From: Escherichia phage ElsieAttenhofer_Bas105
Direction: 5' to 3' (one strand)
Length of the DNA: 39,718 bases
Sequence record: PQ850601.1
In this document: one piece after another, positions 3,485 to 12,401 of the stretch
Layout of the letters: every line of letters begins with the position of its first letter
How positions within the stretch are numbered: the stretch's first letter is position 1
The notes under the pieces: model-generated
The model's input: the letters and a program-made list of their open reading frames with translations, nothing else
Database searches by the model: none
What the model was told of the DNA's origin: nothing
Translations under genes and position numbers: made by a program

Positions 3485-3664
3485 ACCCCCGGTTACTTAT
3501 AGTATTACTGTAGTGAATATACATATGCAGACTTTATGCAAGACCTTAGGAGGCAGACTCCGAGTTCTTACCTAAGGCTTGCACCGATGGAAGGAGGGTG
3601 ATATTAATCATAATCCCTCCAATACAGATAGTCACCGACCATAGATACAGGAGGTATGTAGCAT

Positions 3665-3823
3665 ATGGCAAAGACCAAAGCTGTACTTAAAGCTCTGGCG
3701 ACCAATCGAGCTACATACAGGTTTCTTGCTGCTGTTCTACTTGCTGCTGGCGTTACTGCTGGAAGTCAGTGGGTCGGGTGGGTCGAGACTCTCGTATGTT
3801 CTCTGGTCTCTCAGTGTAATTAA
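3665..3823 (+). CDS. Small hydrophobic ORF (52 aa), possible gene 19.5-like
   Basis: ATG with GGAGG 10 nt upstream, downstream of the phiOR-like promoter; translation MAKTKAVLKALATNRATYRFLAAVLLAAGVTAGSQWVGWVETLVCSLVSQCN; position only. Confidence 0.25.
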   Translation: MAKTKAVLKALATNRATYRFLAAVLLAAGVTAGSQWVGWVETLVCSLVSQCN

Positions 3824-3982
3824 CGCAATCATGGTAACAATCAACGAAAGTAAGACCTAAGGTCAGTTCATAGCTGACGCTACTCTACTGACCTTAGCTA
3901 CTGTAGTCAAGGACTTTAGGTAACACCTTAAGAGAAACTCACTTAGGGTCATCCTACTTATTGGTCTATCCTAGTGTCGCCT

Positions 3983-4022
3983 GACCTACGGTCCTTGACC
4001 TACAGTGGCTGTGACCTACAGT
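3983..4022. repeat. Three direct copies of TGACCTACRGT in the genome-end region
   Basis: TGACCTACGGT at 3983-3993, TGACCTACAGT at 3996-4006 and 4012-4022; related CTACCTACAGT copies near 4285-4318. Confidence 0.6.
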
Positions 4023-4108
4023 AGTGACGATGAGTTTTGGACCAAAAGTTTGAGACCACATCTCACAGTTCAAGAACCTCAAGTCTCCCCATAGGCCCTC
4101 TTTTAGTC

Positions 4109-4250
4109 CAGACCAATAGTCCCTACCCATAGACCTTTGGTCTACACCTCTAGTCTATCATAAGGTTGGACCGGTTGTCAAGACTTCAGGTCAACTATAG
4201 GTCTAGGCTATGGCTGGAGGTTGGGACGATAGGTAGGGACTATTGGTCTG
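4109..4250. repeat. Perfect 19-bp inverted repeat pair flanking a 104-bp spacer
   Basis: CAGACCAATAGTCCCTACC at 4109-4127; exact reverse complement GGTAGGGACTATTGGTCTG at 4232-4250. Confidence 0.7.
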
Positions 4251-4375
4251 CCTCTGAGTCCCTATCTGTATCAGACCATAAGTCACTACCGAGCTACCTA
4301 CAGTCTAACTACCTACAGTCATCGACCATCGGTAATGCCGCTACCTACTGTATAAATTACCATGATAAACAGTTG

Positions 4376-4404
4376 TTGACAGTAGGTCTAACTTTGGTTT
4401 AATA
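4376..4404 (+). promoter_or_regulatory. Candidate sigma70 early promoter (A1-like)
   Basis: TTGACA at 4376-4381, 17-bp spacer, weak -10 TTAATA/TTTAAT around 4398-4404; first of three TTGACA elements upstream of ocr. Confidence 0.35.
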
Positions 4405-4514
4405 GCTTCCGTCAACACGACACGGCAACAACCGGATAGTGAAGACGCCGGGTCATCCCGGTTAAGTAGACAGCCTGATAAGTCATACGAACAACAGGCA
4501 GATGACAGAAGTAG

Positions 4515-4543
4515 TTGACAAGATGTAAGACTTAAAGTAGTAT
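4515..4543 (+). promoter_or_regulatory. Candidate sigma70 early promoter (A2-like)
   Basis: TTGACA 4515-4520, 17-bp spacer, -10 TAGTAT 4538-4543. Confidence 0.5.
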
Positions 4544-4669
4544 GATTCACCAAGTAGTACAGCGAGCCGGAACTGATAAACTACATCGGCTATGCGGAGT
4601 GACCAGCGCGGATATCTGGTCTACTGAGTAAGACGGTAGGTTACTACAGAGAGCGAGCTAAGAAAGTGA

Positions 4670-4698
4670 TTGACAAGATGGCTTGACTGTAGTAACTT
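4670..4698 (+). promoter_or_regulatory. Candidate sigma70 early promoter (A3-like)
   Basis: TTGACA 4670-4675, 17-bp spacer, -10 TAACTT 4693-4698; shares TTGACAAGATG with the 4515 element. Confidence 0.4.
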
Positions 4699-4898
4699 AT
4701 ACGGCAAGCAAGATTAGTGAGTCCCAACACTGAAACGGGATAGCGCGGCGACGACAGCCAATGCGAATGCTCTTTAACAATCTGGATAAACTCTTAATGT
4801 GCGCCGATAGCGACTAACTACAGGGTCTTTGAGTCTACATCTGAAGGCCCTGACTGATAGTCACTAACATACACAAACAACTTTGAGAGGATATAATT

Positions 4899-5243
4899 AT
4901 GGAACGTAACGCTAACGCATACTATGAGCTGCTGGCTGCAACTGTTGAAGCATTTAACGAGCGCATTCAGTACGACGAAATAGCTGAAGGAGATGATTAT
5001 CACGATGCGCTGCATGAAGTCGTAGACGATATGGTCCCGCACTACTACCACGAGATCTTCACGGTGATGGCTGCTGATGGTATTGACCATGAGTTCGAAG
5101 ACTCTGGGCTGATGCCTGATACCAAGGACGTAACGCGTATACTACAGGCTCGCATTTATGAGGCACTGTATAACGATGTGTCTAATAGCTCTGAGGTGGT
5201 CTGGTTCGAGGCTGAAGAGAGCGACGAGGAGGCCTGCGAGTGA
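4899..5243 (+). CDS. ocr: Ocr-like DNA mimic anti-restriction protein (T7 gene 0.3 homolog)
   Basis: 114-aa highly acidic protein; [43 protein letters not shown] nearly identical to remembered T7 Ocr; first gene after the early promoters. Confidence 0.85.
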
Positions 5244-5399
5244 GGGTAACTTATGGTCTCTGCCAGCATCACGTCACCAACGCCCGGATTATGATCAAGA
5301 CCGGGCAGTTAACCCACGATGCGACTATGCGTCACCTGAAGGCGGTCTATGAGGGCCGCAAGCGTATCCACGACAGTTTGCACGCTGAGGACAAGTAAC

Positions 5400-5525
5400 A
5401 TGTACCAGATAACTTATAGCAGTGAACAGGAGTTCTACGATGGGTGCTACGAAATGATGAAGCGCGGGGCTTGCTACGTGGCGAATCACCATAGCCTGAC
5501 CATAACGCTGACAGGCGGGTACTGA
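5400..5525 (+). CDS. Small early hypothetical protein (41 aa)
   Basis: ATG with GAGGA upstream; own translation MYQITYSSEQEFYDGCYEMMKRGACYVANHHSLTITLTGGY; position of T7 genes 0.4-0.6. Confidence 0.3.
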   Translation: MYQITYSSEQEFYDGCYEMMKRGACYVANHHSLTITLTGGY

Positions 5526-5681
5526 GTGATAAACGAGAGGTCATCGACTGATAGGTGGCCTCAAAGATTACCACTTGCATTAATAGGGGTTAACTATGAG
5601 TGTGGGATATTGGGTATGCCTAGCGCCAGTTATCTGGATGATAGGATATGGGATATACGATTGTATTAAACGGAAATCACT

Positions 5682-5879
5682 ATGAGTATATTACTATTGA
5701 TAGCCATAGGCTATGGACTTATCGCCTACGTGCTGATGAGAGACCTTAACAAGGCGCGTAAAGTCTACAAATTCAACTATGTACGTCCGGGCCGCTGGAC
5801 TGTACGTCAACCTAACGGACGATTCATGCGCAACTTAGCGAACGTCTGGGATATAGCAACACTTGGGAGCAAACTGTAA
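5682..5879 (+). CDS. Small early membrane protein (65 aa)
   Basis: N-terminal hydrophobic helix ILLLIAIGYGLIAYVLM followed by basic tail; same strand, tightly packed. Confidence 0.45.
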   Translation: MSILLLIAIGYGLIAYVLMRDLNKARKVYKFNYVRPGRWTVRQPNGRFMRNLANVWDIATLGSKL

Positions 5880-6271
5880 TGACTATGTCAAATCTGGTAC
5901 ACGCAATGGACTCAATCATATCTCTTCGCACATTCACTGATAAGAACGGCGTAGAGTGGAAGTACGTCGGCACGGACTCTCGCGGTCGCAACTACTGGGA
6001 GAAGACCGGGAACAAGACCGCTTATGTGCATCGACACTCTTCACACTCCGCACGTCAACAGCAGGAGCGGTACCGGGTACTGCAAGCAAGACTCCGGGCA
6101 GAGGGCCATAAGTCGGAGCTGATGTGTCTGGCGTATGGTGGACGACCAATCACCGACGATGGTAAACTTTTGGTCTCAGGCTGGAAGGCGATAGACCAAC
6201 GGTCAACCATCAAGCACACGACTCATGGTGACTTCAGTCATCTTCACGCTAATCCACTGATATGCAAGTGA
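5879..6271 (+). CDS. Early hypothetical protein (130 aa) at the position of T7 gene 0.7
   Basis: ORF immediately upstream of gene 1, TAATG overlap with the previous ORF; no kinase motifs; unknown function. Confidence 0.5.
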   Translation: MTMSNLVHAMDSIISLRTFTDKNGVEWKYVGTDSRGRNYWEKTGNKTAYVHRHSSHSARQQQERYRVLQARLRAEGHKSELMCLAYGGRPITDDGKLLVSGWKAIDQRSTIKHTTHGDFSHLHANPLICK

Positions 6272-6276
6272 TTCAG

Positions 6277-6299
6277 ACTTAACTATCACTATAGGACTC
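6277..6299 (+). promoter_or_regulatory. Phage RNAP promoter upstream of gene 1
   Basis: TTAACTATCACTATAGGACTC; predicted +1 at 6294. Confidence 0.65.
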
Positions 6300-6368
6300 A
6301 AGGTCTAAGACTCCAAGTGAAAGATCAAAGAGACTTTAAGTGAAAGACTAATAACAAGGACTTTAAGT

Positions 6369-9050
6369 ATGAGCGTCATCTCTATTGACAAACACGACTT
6401 CTCTGATGTGTCAAACGCCATTGAGCCGTTTAACCTGCTGGCCGACCACTACGGGCAAGACCTTGCAGTCAAACAGCTTCAGCTTGAGCATGAGGCATAC
6501 ACTGAAGGCGAGCGACGTTTCATCAAGAACCTTGAGCGCCAGACCGAGCGCGGGGAACTGGCAGACAATCAGGTCGCCAAGCCTTTGATGCAGACTCTGG
6601 TTCCTAAGATTGCGCAAGCCGTCAAGGAGTGGCACGAAGGTCCAGACGGGAAGCTGTCAACCTCTCGTCCTAGCGTAGCGTTCACCATGTTGAGTACTGA
6701 AGAGAAGGCCGTCAAGGATCGCTCTCTGCGTATCTCTTGCGAGTCTGCTGCGGTCATCATACTGAAGGTCATCCTCTCCAAGCTGGTCAAGCCTGAAGGG
6801 ATACCGATTACACCGATGGCCTCCGCGATAGGTCGCACACTTGAGGATGAAATCCGATTCGGTCGCATTCGTGACAAGGAGAAGGATCACTTCAAGAAGG
6901 CGATAGCAGATAACCTGAACAAGAGAGCCGGGGCATCATACAAGAAAGCCTACATGCAAGCGGTTGAGACCTCCATGTTGGAGCAAGGTCAACTGGAAGA
7001 TGCGTGGGGGACTTGGAGTCCGACCGAGGCTGTCCACGTTGGAATCAAGATGCTTGAGATTGTCATCCAGTCTACACAACTGGTCGAGCTTAAGCGTTAC
7101 GGTGCTGGCAATGCAGCGGCTGACGTTGAGATGGTCCACCTGTCAGACTTCTGGGTCAAGAAGATGGCACAACGCGGCTTCAGCCTTGCGGGTATCGCTC
7201 CAGTCTACCAACCTTGCGTCGTTCCGCCTAAGCCGTGGACTGGTGTCGTAGGCGGTGGGTACTGGGCCAAAGGTCGCAGACCACTCCCACTGATTCGCTT
7301 AGGGTCTAAGTCAGCGGTGGCACGTTACGAAGACGTGTACATGCCTGAAGTCTATGACGCTGTGAATATCATCCAGAATACGCCTTGGAAAGTTAACAAG
7401 AAGGTTCTGGAAGTGGTGAACATGGTCGAGAAGCTGAACAACACGCCTATTGATGACATACCTCAGATGGAACCGCTGAAGCCTGAGGACTATGCGGGTG
7501 AGACTGAAGAGGAACTCAAGGCATGGAAGAAGGCTGCTGCTGGTATCTACCGCCGAGAGAAGGCCAGGCAGTCACGTAGATTGTCACTGAGCTTTATCGT
7601 TAACCAAGCGAACAAGTTCTCTCAGTTCAAGGCCATCTGGTTCCCGTACAACATGGACTGGCGCGGTCGCGTCTACGCTGTGCCGATGTTCAACCCTCAG
7701 GGTAATGACATGCAAAAGGGTCTCCTGACTCTGGCAGTAGGTAAGCCTATTGGTGCTGATGGTTTCAAATGGCTGAAGGTCCACGGTGCAAACTGTGCGG
7801 GTATTGATAAAGTAACCTTCGAGGAGCGCATCAAGTGGGTGGAAGATAACCACGACAACATCATGGCTACCGCTAAGGCACCGATGGACAGCATTGAGTG
7901 GTGGGGCAAGTTAGACTCTCCGTTCTGCTTCCTAGCGTTCTGCTTCGAGTATGCTGGCGTAATGCATCACGGATTGTCTTACTCCTGCTCGCTGCCGATA
8001 GCATTCGATGGGTCCTGCTCTGGGATTCAGCACTTTAGCGCGATGCTTCGTGATCACATCGGTGGACATGCAGTAAACCTGACGCCTTCCGGTAAGGTAC
8101 AAGACATCTACCGCATCGTGTCTGACCGCATTGAGGAAGAGCTTAAAGTCCTGCTGGTTAACGGCACGGACAACGAGATGGTAACTCACGAGGACAAGAA
8201 AACTGGTGAGATTACCGAGCGTCTCAAACTGGGGACACGAGAACTGGCCCGTCAGTGGCTGACTTACGGTATGTCACGTAAGGTCACTAAGCGTTCAGTC
8301 ATGACTCTGGCCTACGGGTCGAAAGAGTACGGCTTCGCAGACCAAGTATACGAGGACATCGTGATGCCTGCGATTGACTCAGGGTCTGGCGCTATGTTCA
8401 CCGAACCAAGCCAAGCGTCCCGCTTCATGGCTAAGATGATTTGGGAAGCTGTGAGCGTGACCGTAGTTGCTGCGGTTGACGCGATGAAGTGGCTTCAAGG
8501 TGCTGCCAAGCTGCTGGCTGCTGAAGTGAAAGACAAGAAGACTGGAGAAATCCTGAAGCCTTGCCTTCCAGTACACTGGGTAACACCTGATGGGTTCCCG
8601 GTCTGGCAGGAATACCGCAAGAAGGATACCACTCGTCTGAACCTGATGTTCTTAGGGTCATTCAACCTTCAGCCTACCGTCAACAAAGGCACTAAGAAAG
8701 AGCTGGATAAGCACAAGCAGGAGTCAGGCATTAGCCCGAACTTCGTCCACTCACAAGATGGTAGCCACCTCCGCAAGACTGTAGTCCACACTCACCGCAA
8801 GTATGGCGTAATGTCATTCGCAGTGATTCACGATAGCTTCGGGACCATCCCGGCTGACGCTGAGTATCTGTTCCGTGGTGTCCGTGAGACGATGGTCGAG
8901 ACCTACCGCGACAACGATGTGCTGCTGGACTTCTACGAGCAGTTTGAATACCAGCTTCATGAGAGCCAGCGCGATAAGTTGCCAGAGCTTCCGAAGAAAG
9001 GTAAACTGAATATCGAAGACATCTTGTCTTCAGACTTTGCATTCGCTTAA
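6369..9050 (+). CDS. Single-subunit DNA-directed RNA polymerase (T7 gene 1 homolog)
   Basis: 893-aa ORF colinear with remembered T7 RNAP (FNPQGNDMxKGLLTLA, motif C VIHDSFGT, C-terminal SDFAFA); specificity-loop region reads GSFNLQPTVNKGTKKELDKHKQ. Confidence 0.97.
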   Translation: MSVISIDKHDFSDVSNAIEPFNLLADHYGQDLAVKQLQLEHEAYTEGERRFIKNLERQTERGELADNQVAKPLMQTLVPKIAQAVKEWHEGPDGKLSTSRPSVAFTMLSTEEKAVKDRSLRISCESAAVIILKVILSKLVKPEGIPITPMASAIGRTLEDEIRFGRIRDKEKDHFKKAIADNLNKRAGASYKKAYMQAVETSMLEQGQLEDAWGTWSPTEAVHVGIKMLEIVIQSTQLVELKRYGAGNAAADVEMVHLSDFWVKKMAQRGFSLAGIAPVYQPCVVPPKPWTGVVGGGYWAKGRRPLPLIRLGSKSAVARYEDVYMPEVYDAVNIIQNTPWKVNKKVLEVVNMVEKLNNTPIDDIPQMEPLKPEDYAGETEEELKAWKKAAAGIYRREKARQSRRLSLSFIVNQANKFSQFKAIWFPYNMDWRGRVYAVPMFNPQGNDMQKGLLTLAVGKPIGADGFKWLKVHGANCAGIDKVTFEERIKWVEDNHDNIMATAKAPMDSIEWWGKLDSPFCFLAFCFEYAGVMHHGLSYSCSLPIAFDGSCSGIQHFSAMLRDHIGGHAVNLTPSGKVQDIYRIVSDRIEEELKVLLVNGTDNEMVTHEDKKTGEITERLKLGTRELARQWLTYGMSRKVTKRSVMTLAYGSKEYGFADQVYEDIVMPAIDSGSGAMFTEPSQASRFMAKMIWEAVSVTVVAAVDAMKWLQGAAKLLAAEVKDKKTGEILKPCLPVHWVTPDGFPVWQEYRKKDTTRLNLMFLGSFNLQPTVNKGTKKELDKHKQESGISPNFVHSQDGSHLRKTVVHTHRKYGVMSFAVIHDSFGTIPADAEYLFRGVRETMVETYRDNDVLLDFYEQFEYQLHESQRDKLPELPKKGKLNIEDILSSDFAFA

Positions 9051-10098: not shown

Positions 10099-10350
10099 AT
10101 GAGTAAACGATGGTTATTCGACGCATCCCCTAGCCAGTGGTCAGTGTTAGGCCGAACTCACCGCGAGATGAGTGAGGCAGGACTTGATGTCCTAATGGAT
10201 GACTCGCCGTGCTCCGGAAAAACTCTGGTCAGAGTAATTGAAGCAGACGGTGGGAGGCTTCTGGTCTCAAGAGAATTTACCGAAGATGAAATCTTTAGCT
10301 GTGAGCAATGGTGCTTACAACAATTGAACGCTTATAGGAGCTGGAAATAA
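10099..10350 (+). CDS. Gene 1.2-like protein (dGTPase inhibitor family, by position and C-terminal similarity)
   Basis: 83 aa versus 85 aa in T7; C-terminus EQWCLQQLNAYRSWK resembles remembered T7 gp1.2 TDWLNHMYDQLKDWK. Confidence 0.55.
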   Translation: MSKRWLFDASPSQWSVLGRTHREMSEAGLDVLMDDSPCSGKTLVRVIEADGGRLLVSREFTEDEIFSCEQWCLQQLNAYRSWK

Positions 10351-11465
10351 TGACAACTATTAAAACTAACCCGCACCGCGCTGTAGATTACTCTGAGTCT
10401 GGCATTAAGAAAGCACTGGCTGCTGCCGGGTCTCTCGAAGCTGAAGTGAAGTATGATGGTGTCCGGTTGAACCTCCCAGTCTTCCCGACAGGCGAGACCC
10501 AGTGGTTGAGCCGAGAGTCCAAGCCTCTTCCAGCCCTTGAATGGCTATCGGTCCTGACCAGCCTCGATAATATCGTGGAAGACCAGCAGCGCGCTAGCGA
10601 CTGGCGGTGGTTCCTGAAGCAAGCTGGCTATGAGGGGACTGGCCTGATGATTGATGGTGAGGTCATGGTGAAAGGGGTAGACTTCAACACGTCTTCGGGC
10701 CTCATTCGCACGAAGTATGTCAAGTCTAAAAACTGCGCCCTCCACGATGGTGATTGGGACCTCAAGTCCAAGACTACTCAGTTCCGGCTGGACCGAGACC
10801 GTATCAAGGTGGTAGTCTATGGCATCATCGACCTTAACGTCATCCTCGACCCGAAAGCCGAAGGTCCTATCCATAGCGTCACACGCCTGAAGGCCGAAGC
10901 TATCGTCCCTCTACTCCAGAAATACTTCCCGGAAATCGACTGGGTTCTGTCTGAGTCACACACGGTCTATGACCTTGAGTCGCTCAACTCCCTGTACGAA
11001 GAGAAGCGTCTGGAAGGACACGAGGGTCTGGTAGTCAAGGACCCACTTGGCAAATACAAGCGCGGAAAGAAGTCAGGCATGTGGAAAATGAAGCCTGAGG
11101 ATACCATTGATGGTATTGTGGTCGGACTGAATTGGGGGAATGAAGGTCTCGCAAACGAAGGTAAAGTGATTGGGTTCGACGTACTGCTTGAGAACGGTAT
11201 GGTAGTTGCTGCTAACAATATCTCTCAGGCTCTGATGGATGAGTTCACAGAAGCGGTTAAAGCTGAACGCGCCTATATTTGGAATGACTGCATGACTGAT
11301 ATTGAGCGGGAAGAATGTGGTGAGGAATGTCTTGAGGATGTGAACCCCTACAAAGGACATCAATGCGAAGTCTCCTACATGGAGATGACTCCGGATGGTT
11401 CCTTACGTCACCCTAGCTTCAAGTGCTGGCGCGGGACGGAAGATAACCCGACCATTAAGAGCTAA
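10350..11465 (+). CDS. ATP-dependent DNA ligase (T7 gene 1.3 homolog)
   Basis: 371 aa; adenylation motif KYDGVR; extended similarity to remembered T7 ligase (EGHEGLVVKDP, KRGKKSGMWKMKPE, DGSLRHPSF). Confidence 0.93.
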   Translation: MTTIKTNPHRAVDYSESGIKKALAAAGSLEAEVKYDGVRLNLPVFPTGETQWLSRESKPLPALEWLSVLTSLDNIVEDQQRASDWRWFLKQAGYEGTGLMIDGEVMVKGVDFNTSSGLIRTKYVKSKNCALHDGDWDLKSKTTQFRLDRDRIKVVVYGIIDLNVILDPKAEGPIHSVTRLKAEAIVPLLQKYFPEIDWVLSESHTVYDLESLNSLYEEKRLEGHEGLVVKDPLGKYKRGKKSGMWKMKPEDTIDGIVVGLNWGNEGLANEGKVIGFDVLLENGMVVAANNISQALMDEFTEAVKAERAYIWNDCMTDIEREECGEECLEDVNPYKGHQCEVSYMEMTPDGSLRHPSFKCWRGTEDNPTIKS

Positions 11466-11474
11466 CTAAATGTC

Positions 11475-11508
11475 AACCCAGTGGTCTTAGGACTTCTGGG
11501 TTTCTTTG
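11475..11508 (+). terminator. Candidate early terminator (TE-like) after the ligase gene
   Basis: Hairpin CCCAGTGGTC-TTAG-GACTTCTGGG followed by TTTCTTTG; T7 TE lies in the same position. Confidence 0.4.
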
Positions 11509-12164: not shown

Positions 12165-12242
12165 GTGGTGCCGGGAGATGTATGAGAAGACTCTCAACCC
12201 GGACTACATTACGTTATACAACCAATGGAAGGAGCGCGGTTT

Positions 12243-12401
12243 ATGACTAAGGTTGAGAAGAAATACATCGTGGAGCTTGAGGGTCGCGTTCAGTCCTTCG
12301 AGGTTCCGGTATACGCAAAGTCTCTTGAAGAGGCTACCCTGAAGTCCCAAGAGTATGAGGATGCAGGGTTTGTGGTCGGACGGATTCGTCCTGAGACCTA
12401 A
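12243..12401 (+). CDS. Host RNA polymerase inhibitor (T7 gene 2 homolog)
   Basis: 52-aa ORF not in the supplied track; [52 protein letters not shown] shares SFEVP(I/V)YA...L(D/E)EA...AGF(E/V)V.R(I/V)RP with remembered T7 gp2. Confidence 0.7.

Follow-up and report, generated by a model that had tools for sequence, protein, structure and literature searches.

The locus raises the question of whether three TTGACA hexamers, all on the forward strand close to the first gene of the phage, are host-type promoters driving early transcription, as the original prediction proposed, and whether they are the counterparts of promoters A1, A2 and A3 of phage T7. The window analyzed here (the whole stretch of 39,718 nucleotides, sequence record PQ850601.1) is the circularly permuted 39.7-kb genome of a podophage in the T7 family, belonging to the genus Kayfunavirus (K1F-like). 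Window positions 3700-4900 were matched by 387 phage records, mostly of Kayfunavirus, with identities of 85-94%; the closest relative by early genes was Escherichia phage EcoDS1 (94.9% identity, with 94% of 6.6 kb covered). The physical left end of the genome lies at window ~4061, where the genome ends of K1F and EcoDS1 align. Counted from there, the three -35 boxes are found at 316, 455 and 610 nt and the ATG of ocr at 839; all three sites occupy 316-646 nt, inside the first 650 bp and directly after the terminal repeat. The array points rightward, with the left terminal repeat on one side and gene 0.3 on the other, and falls in the first ~850 bp of the genome.

From 4061 to ~4340, the terminal repeat and the sequence just after it display numerous short direct repeats, of the CCTACAGT or ACCATAAGTC type, along with an inverted repeat of 27 nt (4109-4135 / 4224-4250). 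A scan of window 3500-6500 against Rfam, with E values up to 1, gave no match.

The three sites under study can be described as follows.

4376-4411, + strand, predicted promoter A1: -35 box TTGACA at 4376-4381, 16-bp spacer, TGg at 4395-4397 followed by TTTAAT at 4398-4403, predicted start G4411.

4515-4552, + strand, predicted promoter A2: -35 box TTGACA at 4515-4520, 17-bp spacer, -10 box TAGTAT at 4538-4543, predicted start ~4550-4552.

4670-4706, + strand, predicted promoter A3: -35 box TTGACA at 4670-4675, 17-bp spacer, -10 box TAACTT at 4693-4698, predicted start A4706.

Each of the three hexamers agrees with the -35 consensus at six of six positions. The distances had been put at about 140-155 bp between sites and about 230 bp from the last one to ocr; we measured 139 and 155 bp, and 229 bp from the first base of the third TTGACA (4670) to the ocr ATG at 4899. 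An extended motif had also been claimed for two of the sites, and 4515 and 4670 do share AAGT(A/G)(G/A)TTGACAAGATG, that is, AAGTnnTTGACAAGATG (family D12). The 17-bp spacers with plausible -10 elements, on the other hand, were only partly borne out: they hold at 4515 and 4670, each of which has a TAnnnT hexamer at 16-18 bp, but not at 4376, where a 17-bp spacer leads to TTAATA, a poor match (2/6). The best candidate at 4376 is TTTAAT at 16 bp, which lacks the near-universal A at position 2 and is preceded by TG; this register, read as an extended -10, scores 11.8 vs 2.2 for the 17-bp TTAATA. Judged from the sequence, the -10 of A1 is to be corrected to a 16-bp spacer with TGgTTTAAT.

In T7 each promoter starts 8 nt past the last -10 base, according to both the T7 record and our scan, and the same rule applied to the window predicts starts at G4411, C4551 (with purines at 4549 and 4552) and A4706. 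The predicted start G4411 is independently backed by a 5' hairpin beginning at the same base.

The parallel with T7 A1/A2/A3 proved to go beyond similar layout, as the window aligns with the T7 segment through conserved blocks, which indicates homology. Those common to the window, T7 and K1F include the A1 -35 box and some of the spacer after it (GTCTAAC), a block of 40 nt in the A1-A2 interval, the extended -35 boxes of A2 and A3, a hairpin following A3, the boxA-like GCTCTTTAACAATCTGG and another hairpin that precedes gene 0.3. In the T7 record the starts of A1, A2 and A3 are annotated at 498, 626 and 750 and gene 0.3 at 925. Moreover, EcoDS1 shows 95% identity over the 566-bp promoter region, and its record (NC_011042) contains three "host RNAP promoter" features (469-505, 609-647 and 764-800), apparently predictions made by the annotators, which span from the -35 box to the start base and map to window 4376-4411, 4515-4552 and 4670-4706. 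The first of these features is 37 nt long (6 + 17 + 6 + 7 + 1) and thus implies CTTAAT as the -10, matching the A1 register that we had derived independently. The A-promoter sites are annotated in neither the K1F nor the PE3-1 record. A literature search returned nothing specific on host promoters of Kayfunavirus, on EcoDS1 promoters or on a T7 boxA, and no start-site mapping for the window phage, EcoDS1 or the clade to which they belong.

The homology to T7, the annotation of the 95%-identical EcoDS1 at the same places and the conservation described below all support the reading as host-type early promoters. We consider it very probable, with predicted function resting on homology and conservation, that the three sites serve the host RNA polymerase as promoters of the sigma-70 type and that they are the Kayfunavirus counterparts of T7 A1, A2 and A3. 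The A1-A3 array is an already known, textbook element of the T7 group, annotated as such in EcoDS1; in the window its value is mainly one of correct annotation, as it would mark where the early transcription unit of this phage begins.

The conservation of the array was followed by means of a short sequence located between A1 and A2.

4463-4484, + strand, conserved 22-mer TAAGTAGACAGCCTGATAAGTC.

An exact search of viral contigs with this 22-mer yielded 42 loci which, together with the window, T7, K1F and PE3-1, make a set of 46 early regions. Measured from the 22-mer as an anchor, TTGACW is found in these loci at -86 to -91 (A1) and at +37 to +53 (A2), with one or two further copies before boxA, and a TAnnnT-type hexamer stands 17-18 bp after almost all copies, the exception being A1 of Kayfunavirus. 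The -10 variants include GATACT, TACTAT, TATTAT, TAAGAT, TACGAT, TAGTAT, TAAGCT and TAACTT. The promoter count varies from two (K1F, PE3-1 and others) through three (the window, EcoDS1 and T7) to four (loci L006, L012, L023, L025 and L042). These comparative data portray the T7-group phages as having two to four A promoters made of exchangeable modules.

For A2, the -10 is conserved among the relatives as TAGTAT, TAATAT or TAGCAT. At window 4499-4520, as in Kayfunavirus genomes, a degraded ATGACA occupies the position of the T7 A2 -35 box and a perfect TTGACA follows 15-16 nt beyond; by this comparison, A2 appears to have been rebuilt slightly downstream in Kayfunavirus. Two different A3 modules are in use in the genomes of this genus. 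The one in the window (TAACTT atacggcA) is shared with EcoDS1 and with loci L030 and L032, and occurs in nine phage records in all, while loci L010 and L015 keep the A3 hexamers, the 17-bp spacing and a similar start region around a different spacer sequence, which is the pattern one would expect of a promoter.

Could such a cluster have arisen by chance, or serve a role other than transcription, for instance as signals near the genome end for packaging or replication? Across the whole window TTGACA shows no enrichment (29 observed vs 26 expected), and three same-strand copies within 294 bp appeared in 76 of 1000 first-order Markov sequences (7.6%); the clustering of TTGACA by itself is therefore weak, non-significant evidence. 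In addition, the left-end surroundings are rich in short repeats associated with the genome terminus. Complete promoters are another matter, since three full promoter-like sites on one strand within 330 bp were obtained in just one of 2000 simulations, using as threshold the score of the weakest observed site, a choice made post hoc. Furthermore, the sites are homologous to experimentally established promoters of T7, their hexamers, spacing and orientation are conserved over the 46 loci, and they are placed directly upstream of the first gene, on its coding strand. Taken together, a chance cluster or a role outside transcription appears extremely improbable.

A milder alternative accepts the promoters and supposes that only some of them are active: A2, perhaps along with A3, would carry early transcription, A1 being weak or a relic kept for some other reason, such as the conserved leader DNA downstream of it. 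The scans lend this some weight. A consensus promoter scan reported only 4515 among the three sites (10/12 consensus matches, its best result on the + strand), whereas the same scan applied to the first 3.5 kb of T7 as a control returned exactly A1, A2 and A3, so that A1 and A3 of the window fit the consensus less well than those of T7; they may be weaker than their T7 counterparts. We also ranked all positions on both strands of the whole window by a weight matrix combining -35, spacer, -10 and TG extension, with unfitted textbook frequencies; A2, A3 and A1 came 2nd, 6th and 10th, respectively, and six of the ten best sites fell in 3880-4700. The -10 of A3 matches the consensus at 3/6 positions, yet it retains the T, the A and the final T, which are the three most informative ones. 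A1 is the lowest-scoring of the three, and in most Kayfunavirus relatives it consists of TTGACT and CTTAAT, with a score of only 7.9. Besides, a promoter number that varies from two to four implies that individual copies are dispensable.

Nevertheless, A1 of the Kayfunavirus loci always reads TGgYTTAAT, and its -35 box, TG and YTTAAT are held in a fixed register while the adjoining spacer bases vary. The TG of an extended -10 commonly makes up for a weak hexamer. Furthermore, the 5' hairpin has the predicted +1 as its first base, an arrangement shared with T7 and its mapped A1 start, and the EcoDS1 annotators also called the A1 counterpart a promoter. Activity restricted to some of the sites thus seems unlikely, and we favor the reading in which all three are host promoters.

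Transcripts starting at A1 would carry a structured 5' end.

4411-4462, + strand, 5' leader of the predicted A1 transcript: a three-tier hairpin from +1, then a second hairpin.

RNA folding of 4411-4514 gave a z-score of -4.07. The same two-hairpin shape is formed in every lineage (T7, T3-like, K1F-like and others) by differing sequences, each folded separately, with CAC/GUG, GGGA/UCCC and AGC/GCU as variants of the middle stem, and in T7 the first hairpin starts one base after the mapped A1 start. RNAalifold run on a MAFFT alignment of the A1 leader reported only invariant or one-sided pairs; that alignment does not track the stems. These hairpins may act as a 5' stabilizer of the early RNA.

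The array also surrounds a very strongly conserved non-coding block, whose role has apparently been annotated by nobody. The 50 nt at 4452-4501, with 4463-4484 as their core, were matched by 529 phage records, 507 of them with at least 90% identity, across many Studiervirinae genera and hosts, while the flanks diverge. The block contains no conserved ORF, has no Rfam match and is annotated in no record. A coding role was considered and rejected: on the minus strand the open stretches range between 6 and 123 codons and no ORF is conserved, and two frames of the + strand contain stops. It is possible, if on balance doubtful, that the two leader hairpins, which fall in the first ~90 nt of the A1 transcript and hold their shape by compensating changes, and the ~40-nt block after them form a functional element not yet described, an RNA or DNA site for a conserved host factor in the first seconds of infection. 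Such an element might take part in loading the host polymerase for genome entry, or in stabilizing or processing the early RNA.

Two further elements lie beyond A3 and would be present on the transcripts from all three promoters.

4721-4741, + strand, hairpin GUCCC-AACACUGAAAC-GGGAU, downstream of A3 and upstream of boxA.

4769-4780, + strand, boxA-like GCTCTTTAACAA, identical in T7, K1F and EcoDS1.

The hairpin at 4721-4741 keeps its loop, ACACUGAAA, and its stem shows compensating changes among the loci (UCCC/GGGA, UCACC/GGUGA, GCGC/GCGC and GACC/GGUC). The GCTCTTTAACAA sequence, located ~30 nt downstream of the ACACUGAAA-loop hairpin and found in ~30 of the 46 related loci, is presumably a boxA, an assignment that relies on the boxA consensus. 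Leaders of ribosomal RNA operons have the order boxB-boxA, and by analogy the putative arrangement of hairpin and boxA-like sequence recalls it.

The content of the region that follows is that of a T7-type early unit, as ocr, gene 1, ligase, a TE-like hairpin with a T-run and gp2 were all found.

4796-4875, + strand, RNase III R0.3-like hairpin, interrupted by an internal loop and directly ahead of the ocr ribosome-binding site (z-score -3.31).

4899-5243, + strand, gene 0.3 (ocr, DNA mimic; PF08684, E=8.6e-33), first gene of the early transcript.

6369-9050, + strand, gene 1, phage single-subunit RNA polymerase (PF00940, E=1.9e-106), main product of early transcription.

10350-11465, early region, ligase.

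11477-11508, + strand, TE-like early terminator: 10-bp stem, loop TTAG, then TTTCTTTG.

12225-12401, + strand, gp2-type inhibitor of host RNA polymerase (PF16857, E=2.5e-20).

The aligned T7 segment just upstream of gene 0.3 folds like window 4796-4875; we take this to be the place of the T7 R0.3 site, which is absent from the features of the T7 record. The stem of the TE-like hairpin, read by eye, has eight Watson-Crick pairs, one G-T wobble and one mismatch, and because of that mismatch the terminator scan did not report 11477-11508. The hairpin starts 12 nt past the stop codon of the ligase gene, and TE of EcoDS1, to which it corresponds, is annotated 10 nt past the ligase gene of that phage.

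In T7, ~850 bp of the left end are ejected without transcription, and the host RNA polymerase, acting at A1-A3, then internalizes the genome (PMC11863960); transcription from these promoters pulls the DNA in while producing early RNA (PMC11863960), and the early organization of T7 is likewise given in bioRxiv 10.1101/2021.08.23.457391. In the window phage, the host RNA polymerase would bind A1-A3 within the left-end stretch whose T7 counterpart is ejected without transcription, and would transcribe rightward from ~4411, 4551 and 4706. By analogy with T7, and going by position only, this transcription could also drive genome entry. The early RNA would run through the hairpin at 4721-4741, the boxA-like sequence, the RNase III site, ocr, the small genes, gene 1 and the ligase gene, and would terminate near 11500 at TE. 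Transcription would next pass to the phage polymerase, acting at its 11 phage-type promoters, and gp2 would shut down the host RNA polymerase.

Other promoter-like sequences were recorded in and around the region. The overlapping TTGACT at 4683 was considered as a fourth promoter and rejected, with no -10 in any register (score 2.6). The window contains 11 phage-type promoters (AACTATCACTATAGG consensus), and an identity of the three sites as promoters for the phage polymerase was rejected, no copy of AACTATCACTATAGG being present between 3466 and 6281. The phage-type promoter AACTATCACTATAGGACT at 6281-6298 precedes gene 1 by 70 nt, and its EcoDS1 counterpart is labeled "phi", while the PE3-1 record has a feature ~70 nt upstream of its gene 1 (L001 2874-2896) labeled "host RNAP promoter", which, judged by its relative position, looks like a mislabel. 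The best sigma-70-like site of the whole window is leftward, on the minus strand at 4181-4152 (TTGACA, 18 bp, TG-extended TAGACT), at the same place as the leftward promoter A0 of T7, and is conserved in K1F and EcoDS1. High-scoring sigma-70-like sites are also seen at 3995 (+ strand, TTGACC/TACAGT) and 3910 (- strand, TTGACT/TAGAGT), in the non-coding right genome end just before the terminal repeat. As for genes, automated annotation of many related GenBank records covers the promoter region with as many as six or seven "hypothetical protein" genes; the expert-annotated T7 and EcoDS1 have none there, no ORF is conserved, and those calls are probably spurious.

Compared with T7, the window shows the same order and orientation of the sites, which in both genomes come after the terminal repeat, ahead of gene 0.3 and inside the first 850 bp; an extended -35 region is common to A2 and A3 in both, and downstream both carry boxA, ocr, gene 1 and TE as well as the R0.3-like hairpin. 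The two differ in the spacings of the promoters (128 and 124 bp in T7 vs 139 and 155 bp in the window) and in the -10 boxes, which in T7 are GATACT, TAAGAT and TACGAT, unlike those of the window. The A2 -35 box sits 15 nt farther from the conserved block in the window, the degraded ATGACA being at the T7 position. The window also has no phage-type promoter just upstream of A1, as a counterpart of phiOL would be, and no gene 0.7 kinase in its early region.

EcoDS1 is closer: its three -35 positions and its A3 module (TAACTT) are those of the window, as are boxA, the hairpin and ocr farther downstream, and the ends of its promoter features correspond to the predicted window starts 4411, 4552 and 4706. 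The two differ at several points: A1 is TTGACT/CTTAAT in EcoDS1 vs TTGACA/TTTAAT in the window, the A1 and A2 spacers are one base shorter each in the window, the -10 of A2 is TAGCAT in EcoDS1 and TAGTAT here, and upstream of A1 the two sequences diverge. In K1F and EcoDS1 the stretch from the terminal repeat to A1 exceeds that of the window by ~110-150 bp (by ~150 bp in EcoDS1).

K1F and PE3-1 resemble the window in the -35 positions of A1 and A2, the conserved leader and boxA; however, each contains just two TTGACW promoters and lacks the 150-bp interval that separates A2 from A3. Their second promoter combines an A2-type -35 box with a -10 and start region of the A3 type (TAAGCT gtaccacA; L002 560-620 in K1F, and L001 for PE3-1), and from the sequences it looks as if the interval had been deleted via recombination between the TTGACAAGATG repeats.
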